Shown: piece by piece, positions 35,912 to 42,805 of the stretch
How the letters are laid out: every line of letters starts with the position of its first letter
Numbering within the stretch: position 1 is the first letter of the stretch
DNA from: a phage
Length of the DNA: 64,000 nt
Sequence record: PX418213.1
Direction: 5' to 3' (one strand)
Position numbers and translations under genes: made by a program
Notes under the pieces: model-generated
What the model saw: only the letters and a program-made list of their open reading frames with translations
The model's database searches: none
What the model was told of the DNA's origin: nothing

Positions 35912-38900
35912 TTACATATTACCAAGAGATTTAAGGGTGGATCCATTCTCATTAAGAGCCAGTTCCACGGCATCTCTTAAAGCAGTGCTGTTATTCGATG
36001 CAAAATCTCTAAAGCTAGCAGCATCCATTGTGCTAATATTCAGAATGATTGGTCTTCCAGAGGTAGTCTTTGATCCATCGGAAAGCTGATCATTAGGTGT
36101 GGCTTTCATAGGAACCATAGGAGTTACTACTTCGGTACCGTGCTCACCCATTTGATAGCTAACTCCAGGGTACATCATACCACCCTCAGCACGCGGAACA
36201 AATGAGTTGGCATTACCAATACCCTTATCACCACGTAAGTAGGATAATTCTCCTGAACTAGCTTGCATAGATACATCAATGTTCTTCTGTCGCTCACCTA
36301 AAGTTAGGTACTGAGTAGTATCTGCTCCAGAATCTGCAATAGAAGACATACCAGATGCAGAAGATGCTTGAGCAAGAGCTAAGGCACCTGCCAAACCTGC
36401 CGCCACCATCAAAGGAATAGAGAACGGGTATGGTACAGCTGTTGCCGCTTGCATTACTGCTACTGCTGTCTGGATAATAATTTGTTTCTTAGCTGCATCT
36501 TGCTGAATTTTTAACTTTTCAGCTTCTAACTTTTTCAGTTTAGCTTTAGATGCTTCAGATTTACCATCTCGTTTCTGTTCTGCTGCAATAGCCTGGTCAA
36601 TCGCACTAACCTGCTGACTAGCACTATACTGAATCACAGAAGATACAGCTTGCATACCTGCTGCGATCGTAGAAGTAGTATCTAAAGACCCCATGGAGAA
36701 CTGAATCATAGCATTGGTTAAATTACCCATGCTTTGAGCCACAGCAGTTGCTTCGGAGTTTAGCTCAGATAACTTAGAGATTGCCTGATCATAAGAAGCC
36801 ATTCTATTTCCCATATCAGCAAAATCTTTGTCTTTTCCAGATAGTCCAGTTGTAGGGGTATACACAGCACCTAAAGAAGACCCAACAGAAGCTTGCATTT
36901 GAGCATTGCGTTGTGCTGTTAAAGCTGACATCTGAGCCCTTGTCTTAGCTATTTCAGCATTCCAGCGCATTTGCTCGTTAGCATTACCTTTGGTAAGTTC
37001 TTTCATCTGAGTATAAAAATCTAACTGCATTTCCATTTTTTGCATTTCCCCTGCCAGAGGGAACATGGAAGTTAGAGTATTTTCAAAGGCTTCTTGCCTT
37101 TTACTGGTCATTTCAGCTTGCTGGTCCTGACGGAATTTCCATATTTCACGCTCAATTTGGGCTTGAGAACGTCTAGACTGTTCGGCCTCTTTCTGTTTAT
37201 CAGCTTGTTTTGTATACCATTCGTACTTCTCTTTTTCAATGGTCAATTCAAGATTTAACTGTGCTAGACGATACTGAGTATCTGTCATAGTACGGTTATT
37301 TAAGAGAGCTATCTCACGATCTACACCCAGAATTTTATCAGTATAATCCTTAACCTTCTTCTGAGCTTCCATACCCTGATTAGTAAGTTTAAGTTTCTCC
37401 AGCTGAATTTTTTCAATTTCTTTCTCAACAGCTTTATTTCCCTGGTTTGTTTGAAGTACACGGCGTAGGGCAGCTTCTTGCTCTTCTAACTGTTGTAACT
37501 CTAAACGTCTACCTGCTTCTTGTGCTTTTTCTTTATCCTTAGTTTGGTTGTATACATCAGCTATCTTCTGTTGAACTGCTAACTGATTTTTAGTTTCATT
37601 ACCAGTTAGTTTAACATACTCAGATAAGGCCTGAGACGCAGTTTTCATTTCAGACAGAGTGTTATAGCCTAGGTTAAGATTTTTAACATACTCATCTGCA
37701 CTTTTACCAGTACCTAGAGATAGAGATTCTATGTTTTTTATAGCATCTGCTAAAGTAGCACTAGTCTTAGCAGCAGTATCTGTATTCTGAGCAACGTTCT
37801 GTATATCATTAGCTAAGTCACTAGCAGTTTTCTTAGTCTGATTATATGCTTTTTGTTGTTCAGTTAGTCCTTTTAATACAGTAGAGTTAAAATCGTATAC
37901 AGCATCAGGATCAGTAGTATCTCTCTGTAGATTAATCTGTTTCTGAAACTCTGGATTAGCCTTTGCAGCAGCAGCCCCAGCAGCTTGATACGCTGATTTC
38001 CAAGCAGTAAGATTCTCTGTAGAATCATTAACTTCTTTATCCAAGCGTGCTACTTGTAGTCCCATAGCGGCAGTTTCTGCTACAAATTGTTTATTAGCTT
38101 CCGAAGCACCTGCTGCTGCAAGACCAACAGGAATACCTTCACCAACTTGACGTATAGCTAGTTTTGTGTAGAAATCTGCTTGTTCCATTCGTTTATCGAA
38201 CTCAGATTTTAGCTTATTACGCTTATCAAGAGATTCCTTATACATATCTAGAGCTTTATTATAGCCTTCTTCAGAAGCGGCCAAACTTAAAGCAACAGCA
38301 CCAACGTTGGTAGGATCTATCTGTCTATTAGTTTTTTCTTGAGCCCTAGCTGCTTCAGCAGATACAGAAGCCTGAGAAGTATAAAATACTGTGTTGATAG
38401 CATCAATTACTGGTCCTAAGTACTTAGCAGCAGCTTGTTGTACTGTTCTTAGTGCAGCATCTGCGTTAGCAGCAAACTGCTCCCACGGAGTAGCACGTAA
38501 AACTTCATCTAAGTAACCAAAACGTTTAGTAGATTCTGCTATAACAGCATTAGCATATGCTTGCTGTTTCTGGAAAGTGGTAAGACTATTAATGTTATAA
38601 GTTATGCCTGTGTTTGCAGCATTTAACTGTTTAACGTAATCAGCATAAGCATCGTTAAGACGAATAGTAACACCAAGTTCATCCAGAAGTTCGATTTCTT
38701 GTTTAGATACACCCTTAATTACACGGTTAAGTGCATCAGTCATATCAACACCAAGAACAGCGGCAGCACGACGAGCTACTAAACCAAATTTATTAAGTTG
38801 TTCAGCATCAAATCCATAAGCGGATGCTGAGGATGCTTGCCTCATAGCTTCTTCAAAAGAGATTGCATAGCCAGCTGCCTCTTGTAGTGATCTAGCAAGA

Positions 38901-39595
38901 GACTGAACAGGAGTACCTGTCTGAGTACCAACTATAACACCAAATTTTTCTAGACGATTTAACTGATCACCTAGTTTAAGCTGTTCGAATGCAGATTGCA
39001 AAACGAAGATGTTAGAAGCAATAGCAGCGTATAATAAAGGTAAACCACCACCAACTTTAGCCATTGCCGCAAAATCACGAGTTGCACCACGTGCTGAGCC
39101 AGAAGTATTACCAATAGCTCTAGAAGCTCTACCAGCGGCACCAGCAGTATCATTAAAACCTCTAGCTGTACCGCCTAAGACTCTATTGGTGTCATACAAT
39201 CTATCTTGAACTTTCTCTGTTGCAGCTGCAACATCATTACCCATTGCTTTAACAGATCTAGAAACTCCATCGAATCCAATCTCTAGTTTATCTGTTACTT
39301 CAATAAGTTGGATAGCAAGGTCATCTAACTTAGCCCCTATATCATTTATAGATTTAGTAACACTAAGCATACCTCGGCTTGCTTGCATTTTAGTAAGACT
39401 TTTCGCTGCTCTATCCGCTGCCCTCTCAATGGAGTAAAGGGTTTTGGGCATTTTACCTAACTGTTCATTTGTCAGTTCGGAAGCAGCAGCAGCGTTTTCC
39501 AACGCATCAGATACGTTTTCAATAGACTTTGCAGTACGAGTTGCCCCCTTCTGCTTAACGTCTATTAGTAATTCTCGTATTAGCTTATCAGTCAT
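35912..39595 (-). CDS. tail tape measure protein
   Basis: 1227 aa, largely alpha-helical and Ala/Gln-rich; follows the chaperone pair. Confidence 0.8.
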   Translation of the reverse strand: MTDKLIRELLIDVKQKGATRTAKSIENVSDALENAAAASELTNEQLGKMPKTLYSIERAADRAAKSLTKMQASRGMLSVTKSINDIGAKLDDLAIQLIEVTDKLEIGFDGVSRSVKAMGNDVAAATEKVQDRLYDTNRVLGGTARGFNDTAGAAGRASRAIGNTSGSARGATRDFAAMAKVGGGLPLLYAAIASNIFVLQSAFEQLKLGDQLNRLEKFGVIVGTQTGTPVQSLARSLQEAAGYAISFEEAMRQASSASAYGFDAEQLNKFGLVARRAAAVLGVDMTDALNRVIKGVSKQEIELLDELGVTIRLNDAYADYVKQLNAANTGITYNINSLTTFQKQQAYANAVIAESTKRFGYLDEVLRATPWEQFAANADAALRTVQQAAAKYLGPVIDAINTVFYTSQASVSAEAARAQEKTNRQIDPTNVGAVALSLAASEEGYNKALDMYKESLDKRNKLKSEFDKRMEQADFYTKLAIRQVGEGIPVGLAAAGASEANKQFVAETAAMGLQVARLDKEVNDSTENLTAWKSAYQAAGAAAAKANPEFQKQINLQRDTTDPDAVYDFNSTVLKGLTEQQKAYNQTKKTASDLANDIQNVAQNTDTAAKTSATLADAIKNIESLSLGTGKSADEYVKNLNLGYNTLSEMKTASQALSEYVKLTGNETKNQLAVQQKIADVYNQTKDKEKAQEAGRRLELQQLEEQEAALRRVLQTNQGNKAVEKEIEKIQLEKLKLTNQGMEAQKKVKDYTDKILGVDREIALLNNRTMTDTQYRLAQLNLELTIEKEKYEWYTKQADKQKEAEQSRRSQAQIEREIWKFRQDQQAEMTSKRQEAFENTLTSMFPLAGEMQKMEMQLDFYTQMKELTKGNANEQMRWNAEIAKTRAQMSALTAQRNAQMQASVGSSLGAVYTPTTGLSGKDKDFADMGNRMASYDQAISKLSELNSEATAVAQSMGNLTNAMIQFSMGSLDTTSTIAAGMQAVSSVIQYSASQQVSAIDQAIAAEQKRDGKSEASKAKLKKLEAEKLKIQQDAAKKQIIIQTAVAVMQAATAVPYPFSIPLMVAAGLAGALALAQASSASGMSSIADSGADTTQYLTLGERQKNIDVSMQASSGELSYLRGDKGIGNANSFVPRAEGGMMYPGVSYQMGEHGTEVVTPMVPMKATPNDQLSDGSKTTSGRPIILNISTMDAASFRDFASNNSTALRDAVELALNENGSTLKSLGNM

Positions 39596-39604
39596 GTTTT
39601 ATTT

Positions 39605-39643
39605 TTCCCAATAAAAAAGGCTCTGGGCAAATCACCCAGAGCC
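39605..39643 (-). terminator. intrinsic terminator / attenuator between chaperone and tape measure genes
   Basis: Stem ggctctggg / cccagagcc followed on the minus strand by TTTTTTATTGGGAAAA. Confidence 0.5.
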
Positions 39644-39678
39644 AAGCCTCATCGTGGAACGCCCATTGGAGGAAACTT

Positions 39679-40134
39679 TTACCGTGCTCGAGATTTAGCA
39701 TGTGGCTTAACGTTAGGAATCCTTCCGTTTTGCGGTTTATGCTTCTCAGCACGTTTACGTGCAGCATCTACAGCTTTAGCATCAAATATATTGATAATGT
39801 GTAGAACAAATTCTTTTTCTATAGGATCAGTAATCCCATAAATATCAAATAAAACACCTAATGCAGCCTTATCCTTACCTATAAAAATAGGAAAGTCACC
39901 CGGTATGAAACAGTCAATTAGACTGTTATAAATATTCATACTAATAGCTACAATAGGTGGAAAATCCTCAAGTTCAACGGGCATAGCCTTAGGATCAGGC
40001 TCTATACCCATTGACTCACAAAGTATTAAATATTGTTGTTTGGTCATTTTAGATGCTGAGCTTTTAATACATTTATCTGCAAAATCAGCAACAGCATCTA
40101 GAAGTTCTTTACGCTTTTGCGCTACGAAAAGTAT
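39679..40134 (-). CDS. tail assembly chaperone, downstream (T-like) frame
   Basis: ORF track 39679..40047; this frame is open upstream to 40134 and overlaps the end of the upstream ORF by about 25 nt in the +1 frame. Confidence 0.35.
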   Translation of the reverse strand: MLFVAQKRKELLDAVADFADKCIKSSASKMTKQQYLILCESMGIEPDPKAMPVELEDFPPIVAISMNIYNSLIDCFIPGDFPIFIGKDKAALGVLFDIYGITDPIEKEFVLHIINIFDAKAVDAARKRAEKHKPQNGRIPNVKPHAKSRAR

Positions 40135-40513
40135 CTAAGTGGAACACTGTCTGGTTGATCCAAGAATCAAACGCAGCAGAGTTCTGCATAAGCATTACAG
40201 CATTATCGCGACTAAAAGGAACTTCAGTCTCAGGATCAGCATCTGTTTCAATCAGCATCAGTTTTTCAACGTCACCTACAGTCAAACCAGTCCAACCTTT
40301 AATAGCAGCATCAACGAAGGCTTCAATGAACTTATCATCATCCTGTACCTGAATCAAAGTACCATTAACCCACTCATCACGTTTAGCAGAAGTGATAACT
40401 CGTTTAGAAGTAGCACGAGACATATAATTAAGCTCTAGCTTAAAATTCGGCATGCCTGGGTATGAGAGAGTGACAGTACGAGTTTCTAGAGTAATATCTT
40501 TTAAGTTAATCAT
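40109..40513 (-). CDS. tail assembly chaperone, upstream (G-like) ORF
   Basis: 134 aa acidic protein between tail tube/collar genes and the tape measure gene. Confidence 0.4.
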   Translation of the reverse strand: MINLKDITLETRTVTLSYPGMPNFKLELNYMSRATSKRVITSAKRDEWVNGTLIQVQDDDKFIEAFVDAAIKGWTGLTVGDVEKLMLIETDADPETEVPFSRDNAVMLMQNSAAFDSWINQTVFHLDTFRSAKA

Positions 40514-41409
40514 TATTTTCTTTCTCCAAAGAAGTTTATTTCTACAGGATCTGAATCAGCAGTAGGTATTACATCATACTCTACCTGATACAAATCTGAG
40601 AAGTTTAGGCGTTTTGAAATACGTGCTAAAGGGAATGTTATAGAAACATATTTATTCTTAATAATTAGTGGAGTTCTTGTTTCAGGGTCTAGATTCAAGA
40701 ACTTATCTCCTACCAATCTCTTAACGTAATAGAAAGCTAGCGTTGCGGAAGCATTCATTTCATTGACATAAGCTCGTTTATTAGTATAAACTTTATTTAT
40801 ATCAAATATACTTCTATCTTCTCTCCAAGAACATTGTTGCTGGAAGGACATAGATGCTGAAACTAATGCAGGCAATGGTGCGCTATTAGTATACACAGCT
40901 GGAGGACTATACGGAAGTACTTCACCTTGTGTAATTGTATACCCATCACGGAAAGTAGATACTTCAGAGAATTTTCCAGACTCAATACCAACATTTAGAA
41001 TTGGTATACTCTTATCTAGAGAAAAATCAACTGTTGATACATAACAGTTTTCGAAATAAATACAGCTATTATTATAATTAATAATATACATATTGAACAT
41101 AATAGGTTCAATATTGGGAGTATTTCTTGGCAAAAATAAAGAATTTCCCTCACGCGTGAATCCCATCCAATCAAAGAAATTAGATTCAATAAGCGTAGTA
41201 CTGAAATTTATTGCCAATGAAATAGATGAAGGATCTTGAGCATTAATAATAGAGTCTGCATAGTTAGTACGATTATGGATAGTACGTCTAAGAGTCTTAA
41301 ACTCTTGAAAAGACGTACTAGCATCATAGTTAGAGAGGGCATCGAAATGATACCCCCTACCATCGTACTCAATAACTATTTTAGACTCTCGCATGAGAGA
41401 ATAAAACAT
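40513..41409 (-). CDS. tail protein (p140-like, 298 aa)
   Basis: Position and length. Confidence 0.4.
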   Translation of the reverse strand: MFYSLMRESKIVIEYDGRGYHFDALSNYDASTSFQEFKTLRRTIHNRTNYADSIINAQDPSSISLAINFSTTLIESNFFDWMGFTREGNSLFLPRNTPNIEPIMFNMYIINYNNSCIYFENCYVSTVDFSLDKSIPILNVGIESGKFSEVSTFRDGYTITQGEVLPYSPPAVYTNSAPLPALVSASMSFQQQCSWREDRSIFDINKVYTNKRAYVNEMNASATLAFYYVKRLVGDKFLNLDPETRTPLIIKNKYVSITFPLARISKRLNFSDLYQVEYDVIPTADSDPVEINFFGERK

Positions 41410-41413
41410 TTAA

Positions 41414-42805
41414 TTAACCACCTGTTACAGTAATCTGTTTAGTGCCTTTAACTCCGGAACCATCTTTAGCAGTAGCTTCCACAGTTACTGCACCAGTTTT
41501 ACTAGCATTTGCTGTTAGTAACCCTGTTGCATTGATAGTAGCTGCATCACCGGCAGTGATAGCCCAGGTAACATCCTTATTCCTTGCGGAAGAGGGAGTA
41601 ACTTCAACACTCATCTGAAGAGTTTGTCCAGTCCGAACAGAAGTAGCCTCACCGGCAGATTTAACAGTAATTGCAGTTACAGCATCAGTAGCACCATCAC
41701 CATTAACAATCAAGTTATTAATAGTTGTTTTAGTATATTTACTAGAGAAACCTAAGTAACCTTCATCACCAGCATCCAGCTCTGACGGAATAGCCTTAAA
41801 CTCTACTGATGTACCAAGTACATCATCAGTCTCAATCGTAGGGATGTTAACGTGCGCTTGTTTAGCTACCAGAATAGCTGCAGGACGTTCATCCTCATAC
41901 TCGCCACCAAGTACTAGAGCTATTTCGAAGCGGTTAACTACCTTCAGAGTTTTAATAAGATCTTTATACAGTTCCATAGAACCAAGAGATTTATCATTCA
42001 GGTAAGCAGTTAATGAACCAGTTAATTCAAAAGCACCGGTAAAGGAACCAATTGGAATAGTAACACGGGACATTACATTAGGTGTTAAATAAGTAATGTT
42101 GTTGTTAATAGTAAAAGTACCACCGGTAATCGGTATGTCATAAGACTTATTGGTATCCATGTCCTTGATCTTCAAGATCGTTAGTTTGTTCTTAATATAA
42201 GAACCCTGGATAGTCATATAAGTTTCATCATCAATACCTAGCTGATCTGGGTCAAATGGGGCGGAATCCAGAGGAATAAGCTGATTACCATTACCAGACC
42301 AAGTTACACGGCCGATATCTTCGATATCAACGTTAACTTCTGCCTGATTAATCTGACAGGAATCAATATAACTCCATGCTTTATCAGTCAGAATATAAAT
42401 ATGTAACATTGCTAACTCATGATAGGAGTTATCTTTGAAGTTAACCATGAAGTTAGTTGCATTATTGTGCGCCCCTGTATTACCTTCTAAGTTAATAGCT
42501 TTACCACTAGAAAGTGCATGCCATAACATATAGTCAGGAACAATTTGTTTGCTAGTAGTTTTATCTTTATACGGTAGGATGTAAGTAGAGAAACTCCACT
42601 CAGCTGCGTTTAAAGAGTCGTTAAAACGTTTAGAACCACGAGTTGGACGCGGACCAGCTTCATTAACAGTAATATCTGTTGAGTTACTGTCCTGACCCCA
42701 AGAAATATCATCCTGAACTAGAATCTCTTGCGTGTTGGTCTTATTATGACCAGTCTTAACCGTAGACACGAAGATTCGAGTATTACGTAATAGTTGTAAA
42801 GACAT
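41414..42805 (-). CDS. major tail tube protein with C-terminal Ig-like domain
   Basis: 463 aa; C-terminal region TVKSAGEATSVRTGQTLQMSVEVTPSSARNKDVTWAITAGDAATINATGLLTA is typical of Big_2-like Ig domains. Confidence 0.7.
   Translation of the reverse strand: MSLQLLRNTRIFVSTVKTGHNKTNTQEILVQDDISWGQDSNSTDITVNEAGPRPTRGSKRFNDSLNAAEWSFSTYILPYKDKTTSKQIVPDYMLWHALSSGKAINLEGNTGAHNNATNFMVNFKDNSYHELAMLHIYILTDKAWSYIDSCQINQAEVNVDIEDIGRVTWSGNGNQLIPLDSAPFDPDQLGIDDETYMTIQGSYIKNKLTILKIKDMDTNKSYDIPITGGTFTINNNITYLTPNVMSRVTIPIGSFTGAFELTGSLTAYLNDKSLGSMELYKDLIKTLKVVNRFEIALVLGGEYEDERPAAILVAKQAHVNIPTIETDDVLGTSVEFKAIPSELDAGDEGYLGFSSKYTKTTINNLIVNGDGATDAVTAITVKSAGEATSVRTGQTLQMSVEVTPSSARNKDVTWAITAGDAATINATGLLTANASKTGAVTVEATAKDGSGVKGTKQITVTGG

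Follow-up and report, generated by a model that had tools for sequence, protein, structure and literature searches.

How do T5-like phages express the second of the two small genes that precede their tape measure gene? The question is raised by a 64,000-nucleotide stretch of phage DNA (sequence record PX418213.1; hereafter "the window"), which derives from a Tequintavirus, or T5-like phage. Over the 1051 bases around the locus, identity to Escherichia phage HK6 is 99.7%, and at an identity of at least 80% this region matches 446 phage records. According to the list of open reading frames (ORFs), all genes of the region are on the minus strand. Long-tailed phages such as lambda use a conserved -1 frameshift to produce the tail assembly chaperones G and GT (Levin 1993; Xu, Hendrix & Duda 2004, 2013, 2014, summarised in PMC5009743). 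The original prediction for this locus, which was made from the letters of the window alone, proposed instead that the two ORFs are connected by a +1 (or -2) shift near the upstream stop codon or, alternatively, that they are two independent genes. Our comparative analysis suggests that the chaperone ORFs are very probably joined by a +1 ribosomal slip at the sequence UUU_CGU, which would give a fusion protein. The argument depends on the following features.

40513..40109, minus strand: upstream chaperone ORF, G-like, homologue of T5.143, 134 amino acids, stop codon TAA at 40111-40109 (PHROG 313)
40132..40124, minus strand: proposed +1 shift site ACU_UUU_CGU, with E-site codon ACT at 40132-40130, P-site codon TTT at 40129-40127 and A-site codon CGT at 40126-40124
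40128..39679, minus strand: predicted coding region of the T part in the +1 frame, beginning with the re-paired TTC and ending with the stop codon TAA at 39681-39679 (frame arithmetic)
40108..40048, minus strand: stretch that separates the upstream stop from the first ATG; annotated as intergenic, it behaves as +1-frame coding sequence
40047..40045, minus strand: first ATG of the downstream frame, the annotated start of the T5.142 homologue (ORF list)
40047..39679, minus strand: downstream ORF, homologue of T5.142, 122 amino acids from the first ATG (ORF list; PHROG 3914 and PHROG 313)

Reading of the minus strand, together with the ORF list, bears out the layout given by the original prediction. 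The upstream ORF stops at 40109-40111, the downstream frame is open from 40134, immediately after a TAG at 40137-40135, and the end of the overlap reads GCA AAA GCG TAA AGA A, as had been stated. Because (40513-40047) mod 3 = 1, the downstream frame is +1 (equivalently, -2) with respect to the upstream frame. The two ORFs overlap by 26 nucleotides in the window and by 14-122 nucleotides in relatives. The -1 frame is closed by a TAG at 40124-40122 and is open for only 7 codons. By itself, an open stretch of ~37 codons is within chance. The +1 relation is held in all 15 diverged lineages that were compared, and thus the arrangement is selected.

The original prediction had suggested comparing the overlap in related phages. 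Our comparison covered ten phages of different genera, with DNA taken from annotated records, and six metagenomic relatives, which were reached by an exhaustive profile search with the 151-amino-acid open frame followed by look-ups of the encoding contigs. The 15 lineages are the window, Erwinia phage KEY, the Klebsiella Sugarlandvirus, Vibrio phages PG07, Gary and D232, Proteus phage Stubb, Providencia phage PR1, Aeromonas phage Akh-2, and the metagenomic lineages L042, L043, L044, L051, L052 and L053. In 15 of 15, the downstream ORF is in the +1 frame and an in-frame NNN_TTT_CGN is present, in which the Arg codon is CGT (nine lineages), CGA (five) or CGC (one) and never AGR. TTT CGT is also invariant at 40129-40124 among 30 unique close relatives, which comprise 28 IMG/VR loci plus GenBank records. 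The codon occupying the E site, by comparison, varies across lineages (ACU, ACC, AAC, UCU, ACG, CGA and CAG).

The motif marks a boundary in both proteins. Conservation of the upstream domain stops precisely at the invariant residues F129-R130, which in the window are followed by four sense codons and then the stop; between lineages the distance from motif to stop ranges from 0 to 17 codons, and the 0-17 residues encoded there are unconserved. Translated in the +1 frame, the sequence is x-F-(V/E/A)-..., and its conservation starts at the junction Phe. In the open frame, tblastn alignments to genera that are 33-52% identical begin at residues 1-4, long before the ATG is reached. Vibrio phage D232 has an overlap of just 14 nucleotides, ACAACTTTCGTTAA. 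A shift in this phage is therefore confined to ACAACTTTCGTTAA and could occur at no other place.

Variation among the close relatives further restricts where a shift could occur. The 15 nucleotides from the motif to the stop contain a single variable site, 40120 (G, C or T), at which the substitutions change the frame 0 residue (Ala, Pro or Ser) and are silent in the +1 frame (GCN, Ala). The +1 frame is therefore under selection from two codons after TTT, and the shift should take place at or before 40122 and not at AAA GCG TAA. Thus, a fusion in the +1 frame, as originally proposed, is strongly supported by the relatives, and its placement beside the stop codon is not.

Codon usage at the junction serves as a control for conservation of the protein. 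The junction Phe is encoded by TTT in 12 of the 12 lineages scored, whereas other Phe codons of the same genes are divided between 34 TTT and 36 TTC, and the six other Phe codons of PG07 and D232 are all TTC. A second invariant Phe (in xFDxW), used as a control, is TTT in seven lineages and TTC in five. Likewise, the junction Arg is CGT or CGA in 12 of 12, and these two codons account for 23 of the 53 other Arg codons. If synonymous sites are taken as effectively independent at these divergences, the estimated chance of 12/12 TTT is ~0.49^12 = 2e-4 and that of uniform CGT/CGA is ~4e-5. A requirement for UUU_C can explain this codon choice; conservation of the Phe-Arg dipeptide in the protein cannot.

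Five more distant metagenomic homologues (L041, L046, L048, L049 and L050) share both domains, lack a gene for the p140-like protein, and place the downstream ORF at -1. A_AAT_TTT is present in three of them, with the homologous Phe as the A-site codon. Another has T_TTC on the homologous Phe, and the remaining one has G_GGA_AAG, the lambda heptamer, immediately ahead of it. The -1 motifs are thus at or next to the same Phe, which implies that the end of the G domain is a recoding site throughout the family. The best-supported reading of these sequences is that the T5 branch meets the same need for recoding in the +1 direction. No natural in-frame fusion of G and T with the expected length and match layout was found among 146 representative homologue clusters, two long multi-repeat proteins among them (P0006 and P0142) not having been examined further. 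The absence of such a fusion fits a need for both a short and a long product. These two long proteins, of 1455 (P0006) and 554 (P0142) amino acids, have 8 and 4 separate matches, respectively, to the T-domain region (query residues ~36-130). They may contain a T-like module repeated within a large protein, or the matches may reflect low complexity.

If the locus instead comprised two independent genes, the downstream protein would be made from ATG 40047 (122 amino acids, ~14 kDa, as annotated for T5.142) and no fusion would be produced. This is how all GenBank and RefSeq records examined present the locus, with two coding sequences (CDSs), and it accords with the retention of the ATG among the 30 close relatives, with the observation that T5.142 expressed alone from its ATG triggers the RorSlfn5 defence (PMC13056530), and with a genome announcement that reports no predicted frameshift signal for either T5 or Sugarland (PMC6256483). 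However, the 61 nucleotides before the ATG evolve as coding sequence. Among the 30 relatives they contain 14 variable sites, 10 of which are at third positions of the +1 frame (binomial estimate of ~0.004 against an expectation of 1/3). The downstream ORF proper shows a like periodicity, with 66 of 88 variable sites at +1 third positions, and conservation of the protein encoded before the ATG extends to the 33-52% identical genera. Moreover, the residue aligned to Met 40047 differs in four of eight genera (V in Erwinia KEY, I in Klebsiella, L in Vibrio PG07 and F in Vibrio Gary). Annotators of genomes that lack the ATG chose TTG, GTG, or other starts, either within the overlap or at a Met codon far inside the frame. 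No Shine-Dalgarno-like sequence ahead of ATG 40047 is evident on reading the sequence, and positions -11 to -3 are taken up by the 3' arm of a 9-bp stem that is described below. Two independent genes would also leave unexplained the invariant TTT_CGN codons, the +1 relation that is fixed in 15 lineages, and the -1 motifs of the distant homologues. Initiation at ATG 40047, the alternative named in the original prediction, is therefore not the conserved mode of expression. We consider two separate genes to be unlikely, and the ATG is probably an internal Met codon of the fusion.

The same frame might be reached by another route, namely a +1 slip on AAA_G by the stop codon or a -2 shift, and both routes taken together appear very unlikely. 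Re-pairing of tRNA-Lys from AAA to AAG is possible at 40117-40114, where the stop is one codon later, but AAA_GCG_TAA is absent outside Tequintavirus, the stop is 0-17 codons away from the conserved motif, site 40120 is already constrained in the +1 frame although it is upstream of this AAA, and a Shine-Dalgarno-like stimulator of the prfB kind is lacking. A -2 shift is documented for the chaperone pair of phage Mu (PMC3498833), and ACU_UUU in the window permits partial re-pairing two bases back, on CUU. However, most lineages have AAC_UUU or ACC_UUU, on which tRNA-Phe has no such re-pairing, and the -2 direction that the original prediction admitted is thus disfavored. The predicted junction peptides are DTFVAQK for a +1 slip at UUU_C, DTFRVAQK for a -2 shift, and DTFRSAKRKELL for a shift at AAA_G. 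We assign a still lower likelihood to independent translation of the long +1 frame, either from a non-canonical start within the overlap or by reinitiation after termination at the upstream stop. Gene callers have used GTG (Klebsiella) or other starts in the overlap (Erwinia KEY and Vibrio Gary), and the stop and the +1 frame are close enough together for reinitiation to be conceivable. Yet candidate starts vary in position and identity, the 14-nucleotide overlap of D232 contains no start codon, and the +1 frame of the window has no ATG, GTG or TTG between 40134 and 40048. Reinitiation, for its part, would leave untranslated the conserved F-V/E... residues that are encoded upstream of the stop. 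Finally, RNA polymerase might slip on the T-run to yield a minority of mRNAs with an altered frame, a possibility that has almost negligible probability. The window has four T residues in a row (CTTTTC), but most lineages have only three (AACTTTCG), and homopolymer runs that support productive transcriptional slippage are far longer than this. A deletion of one base would be needed, and nothing else favors this explanation.

For the +1 ribosomal slip at UUU_CGU, the following sequence of events can be proposed. Both products would arise from one initiation site at 40513. Most ribosomes would read ACU UUU CGU AGC GCA AAA GCG UAA and produce the 134-amino-acid G-like protein. A minority would pause with peptidyl-tRNA-Phe (a single isoacceptor, anticodon GAA) on UUU at 40129-40127 while CGU is undecoded. 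The tRNA would then slip by one base onto UUC at 40128-40126, whereby the third-position G:U pair would be replaced by a G:C pair, and decoding would resume in the +1 frame at GUA (40125-40123). The predicted minor product is a fusion of 277 amino acids (129 + 148; ~31 kDa) that carries the T domain and has the junction ...HLDTF/VAQKRKELL..., where the slash marks the point of the shift. The corresponding CDS would be complement(join(39679..40125,40127..40513)). If the chaperones act as in lambda (PMC5009743), the G portion that both products share would coat pb2, the tape measure protein, and recruitment of the tube protein pb6 would fall to the T portion of the rare fusion. The ratio of G to GT would follow from the intrinsically inefficient slippage at UUU_C. 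Lambda needs ~30 G per GT (PMC5009743), and a low efficiency of slipping would suit a chaperone pair. That the slip occurs, that it goes forward (+1) and not back (-2), how efficient it is and what the two domains do are all inferred.

The arrangement is similar to that of lambda G/GT in that two small ORFs are located just upstream of the tape measure gene and the second, which lacks initiation signals of its own, overlaps the end of the first. As in lambda, one would expect an abundant short product together with a scarce fusion that is extended at its C-terminus, and distant homologues of the T5-type family carry A_AAT_TTT or even lambda's own G_GGA_AAG. The two systems differ in direction, which here is +1. 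A -1 slippery heptamer of the form X_XXY_YYZ is absent from the site in the window, whereas all five distant homologues have one. In addition, the proposed event is a P-site slip of a single tRNA, the p140 gene is inserted between the tube gene and the chaperones, and no sequence similarity of the proteins to Pfam chaperone families was detected.

The closest parallel to the proposed site is found in influenza A virus. The PA-X protein is made by a +1 shift at UCC_UUU_CGU, in which the P-site tRNA re-pairs from UUU to UUC; the junction peptide was identified by mass spectrometry, the efficiency is ~1%, and CGN was, as its authors remarked, preferred as the A-site codon (PMC3498833). UUU_CGN has also been proposed as the +1 site of amalgaviruses (PMC5052127), and "PA-X-like" UUU_CGN sites occur in fijiviruses and chronic bee paralysis virus (PMC3498833, PMC5052127). 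The phage site shares with PA-X a zero-frame UUU followed by CGN (UUU_CGU in the window, exactly as in PA-X), a +1 ORF that extends from the site, the same proposed slip of tRNA-Phe, and no requirement for an RNA structure. Purifying selection in the +1 frame begins at the site, as indicated here by site 40120, the stretch before the ATG, and protein conservation from the junction Phe. The differences are that a bacterial ribosome and a DNA phage are involved, that the slip is deduced here from comparison, and that the E-site codon is variable and is not UCC. CGU, moreover, is a common codon in the present setting, and the rare CGA is used in 5 of the 15 lineages.

UUU_Ynn is described as especially liable to +1 shifts on bacterial ribosomes (E. 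coli argI, Fu & Parker 1994; Schwartz & Curran 1997; cited in PMC5009743) and is the apparent site of the Yersinia YopN-TyeA shift (PMC5009743). These sites and the phage site have in common the tetranucleotide UUU_C, enterobacterial translation, and independence from an adjacent stop codon. The E. coli cases are reportedly translational errors. Unlike such errors, the site described here is conserved across a phage family and leads into a conserved ORF. In prfB (which encodes RF2) and antizyme genes, +1 slipping likewise takes place in the P site, but the slow A-site codon is a stop codon. Here, the stop comes four codons after CGT (0-17 in relatives), and the upstream Shine-Dalgarno-like stimulator of prfB has no counterpart that we could find.

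Directions other than -1 are evidently tolerated in tail modules. The Mu chaperone pair uses -2 (PMC3498833), the chaperone of the haloarchaeal myovirus HSTV-2 is probably expressed by a +1 shift, and +1 recoding occurs in tail genes of SPP1 (gp17.1*) and of Listeria phage Tsh (PMC3498833, PMC5009743, PMC9022992). These cases differ from the present one in the genes or motifs that are used. UUU_CGN is not described for these phages in the sources cited, nor do those sources deal with T5-like phages.

Several points weigh against the proposed slip at UUU_CGU. Its support is wholly comparative, and every public annotation examined gives two separate CDSs. ATG 40047 is conserved within Tequintavirus, as judged from the 30 close relatives, and T5.142 expressed alone from the ATG is active as a Schlafen trigger (PMC13056530); an additional, independent short product may therefore be made from ATG 40047. 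The Phe-Arg dipeptide may be kept for reasons that concern the protein, although this would leave the codon choice unexplained. CGT is the commonest Arg codon of the window (333 of 763), and CGU is common in E. coli (PMC3498833, Table 1), and thus there is no obvious hungry A-site codon. Elsewhere in the window, in-frame TTT_CGN is observed 8 times among ~17,000 codons, compared with 11.9 expected. There is thus no clear avoidance, which means that the motif alone is weak or that other genes tolerate it. Inspection by eye of 13 lineages revealed no Shine-Dalgarno-like stimulator upstream of the site, no conserved 3' RNA structure is apparent outside Tequintavirus (z-scores of -2.6 to +1.3), and positions 39500-40600 have no match in Rfam.

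Two hairpins near the site were considered as stimulators. The larger is located in the stretch that precedes the ATG.

40100..40050, minus strand: lineage-specific RNA hairpin with a 9-bp stem, UAGAUGCUG/CAGCAUCUA (minimum free energy -26.3 kcal/mol, z = -3.4)

The 3' arm of this hairpin ends 2 nucleotides ahead of ATG 40047. In the 30 close relatives, its arms are invariant except for one change of A to G that keeps a G-U pair, and third positions in the loop vary. The hairpin is not conserved in the other genera compared. It was rejected as a frameshift stimulator because it begins 29 nucleotides after UUU, which is too far, and because it is absent as a conserved element in other genera. 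It might instead mask internal initiation or be a site of RNA processing. A smaller candidate, GCGC-AAAA-GCGU, which follows the motif directly, was rejected because the pairing G is replaced by C or T in most close relatives.

The best explanation for the two ORFs is that they are a tail assembly chaperone pair, a functional analogue of lambda G and GT. In T5, the two small ORFs correspond to T5.143 and T5.142, which are both labelled "tail assembly chaperone" and annotated as separate CDSs, and phages HK6, SE11 and ESCO30 are annotated in the same way. The upstream ORF matches positions 12-141 of the 258-position profile PHROG 313, "tail assembly chaperone," with E = 4e-34, and the downstream ORF matches positions 170-258 of the same profile. 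PHROG 3914, which also carries the chaperone label, matches the downstream ORF with E = 1.7e-56. Searches of Pfam, NCBIfam and PDB sequences with the chaperone ORFs gave no match, and relatives have a weak precomputed match to PF27119 (Phage_YdaY). An AlphaFold model of the upstream ORF, made from the single sequence, has a predicted local distance difference test score (pLDDT) of 41, which is too poor to use. The surrounding genes and elements are as follows.

42805..41414, minus strand: gene for a pb6-like tube protein (ORF list and annotations of relatives)
41409..40513, minus strand: gene for a p140-like baseplate tube protein, directly upstream of the chaperone pair (ORF list and annotations)
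39643..39619, minus strand: terminator-like hairpin with a T-run, following the chaperone pair and preceding the tape measure gene
39595..35912, minus strand: tape measure protein gene, pb2 homologue, 1227 amino acids (ORF list and annotations)

The tape measure protein, the homologue of pb2, is presumably the client of the chaperones. The gene order (pb6-like, p140-like, 134-amino-acid ORF, +1 ORF, terminator, tape measure) is the same in the loci of nine other annotated relatives; the Akh-2 record is too fragmentary to show it.

The terminator-like element, which separates the end of the T ORF from the tape measure gene, consists of an 11-bp, GC-rich hairpin that is followed by TTTTTTATTG. 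Terminators are annotated at the matching place in T5, Erwinia KEY and Providencia PR1. The presence of a terminator within a tail operon, just ahead of its largest gene, is curious. In T5 (NC_005859.1, 95777-96529), T5.142 is followed by an endonuclease gene, T5.141, and only then by the tape measure gene. T5.141 is lacking from the window and from HK6, in which the tape measure gene directly follows the terminator (39595-39679 in the window).

Two of the compared lineages have further peculiarities. In the record of Akh-2 (L011; MK318083.1, 98126-100189; locus 450-2064), tblastn alignments of the G, T and tape measure proteins of the window run through 10 in-frame stop codons, and the annotation is split into tiny CDSs. 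TAG is the codon at all four stops in the G ORF and at both stops that separate the motif from the T domain. Either this phage reads TAG as sense, through amber reassignment or suppression, or the sequence contains systematic errors. Akh-2 keeps the TTT_CGA motif and the +1 arrangement. In the metagenomic lineage L042 (ERZ10646672:contig_25402, ~1430-1460), the G-like ORF changes frame in the middle of the domain (...ELEYSH / FTRDNAE...), by which the gene call is cut to 111 amino acids. This change is probably an assembly indel, and neither the TTT_CGT site nor the +1 relation further downstream is affected.

That tail chaperones are made by programmed frameshifting is well established, and a few phages are known to use directions other than -1 (Mu, -2; HSTV-2, probably +1). 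Two aspects of the present case are unusual: bacterial ribosomes would be using a motif of the PA-X type, and the direction of the shift would have switched at, or beside, a single homologous codon. We found no description of a T5 chaperone frameshift in the literature searched. A genome announcement, that of Sugarland, cites a study of T5 morphogenesis (Zivanovic 2014) for the view that T5 has no predicted frameshift signal (PMC6256483), and we know the view of that study only as the announcement conveys it. It is likely that a PA-X-like +1 slip at UUU_CGN yields the GT-type fusion throughout the T5 family (Demerecviridae) and in related uncultured phages.

If this is true, the published view that T5 lacks a chaperone frameshift would be overturned, and an apparent exception to the near-universal G/GT rule would disappear. 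UUU_CGN, a motif established so far in eukaryotic RNA viruses, would have its first conserved, functional use on bacterial ribosomes, and E. coli together with T5 would offer a simple genetic system for studying it. One chaperone family would have switched between -1 and +1, in either direction, at or next to the same Phe codon while its protein output was kept. The many deposited genomes of T5-like phages would need a ribosomal-slippage join, and gene finders should seek UUU_CGN. Tail assembly and tail structure are under intensive study in T5, a model siphophage. The T5.142 protein of this phage is the trigger of the Schlafen defence RorSlfn5, in the description of which it is treated as a free-standing protein of 122 amino acids (PMC13056530). 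If the fusion is real, the T5.142 domain that is sensed by this defence would be, at least in part and perhaps largely, the C-terminus of a 277-amino-acid protein in infected cells.

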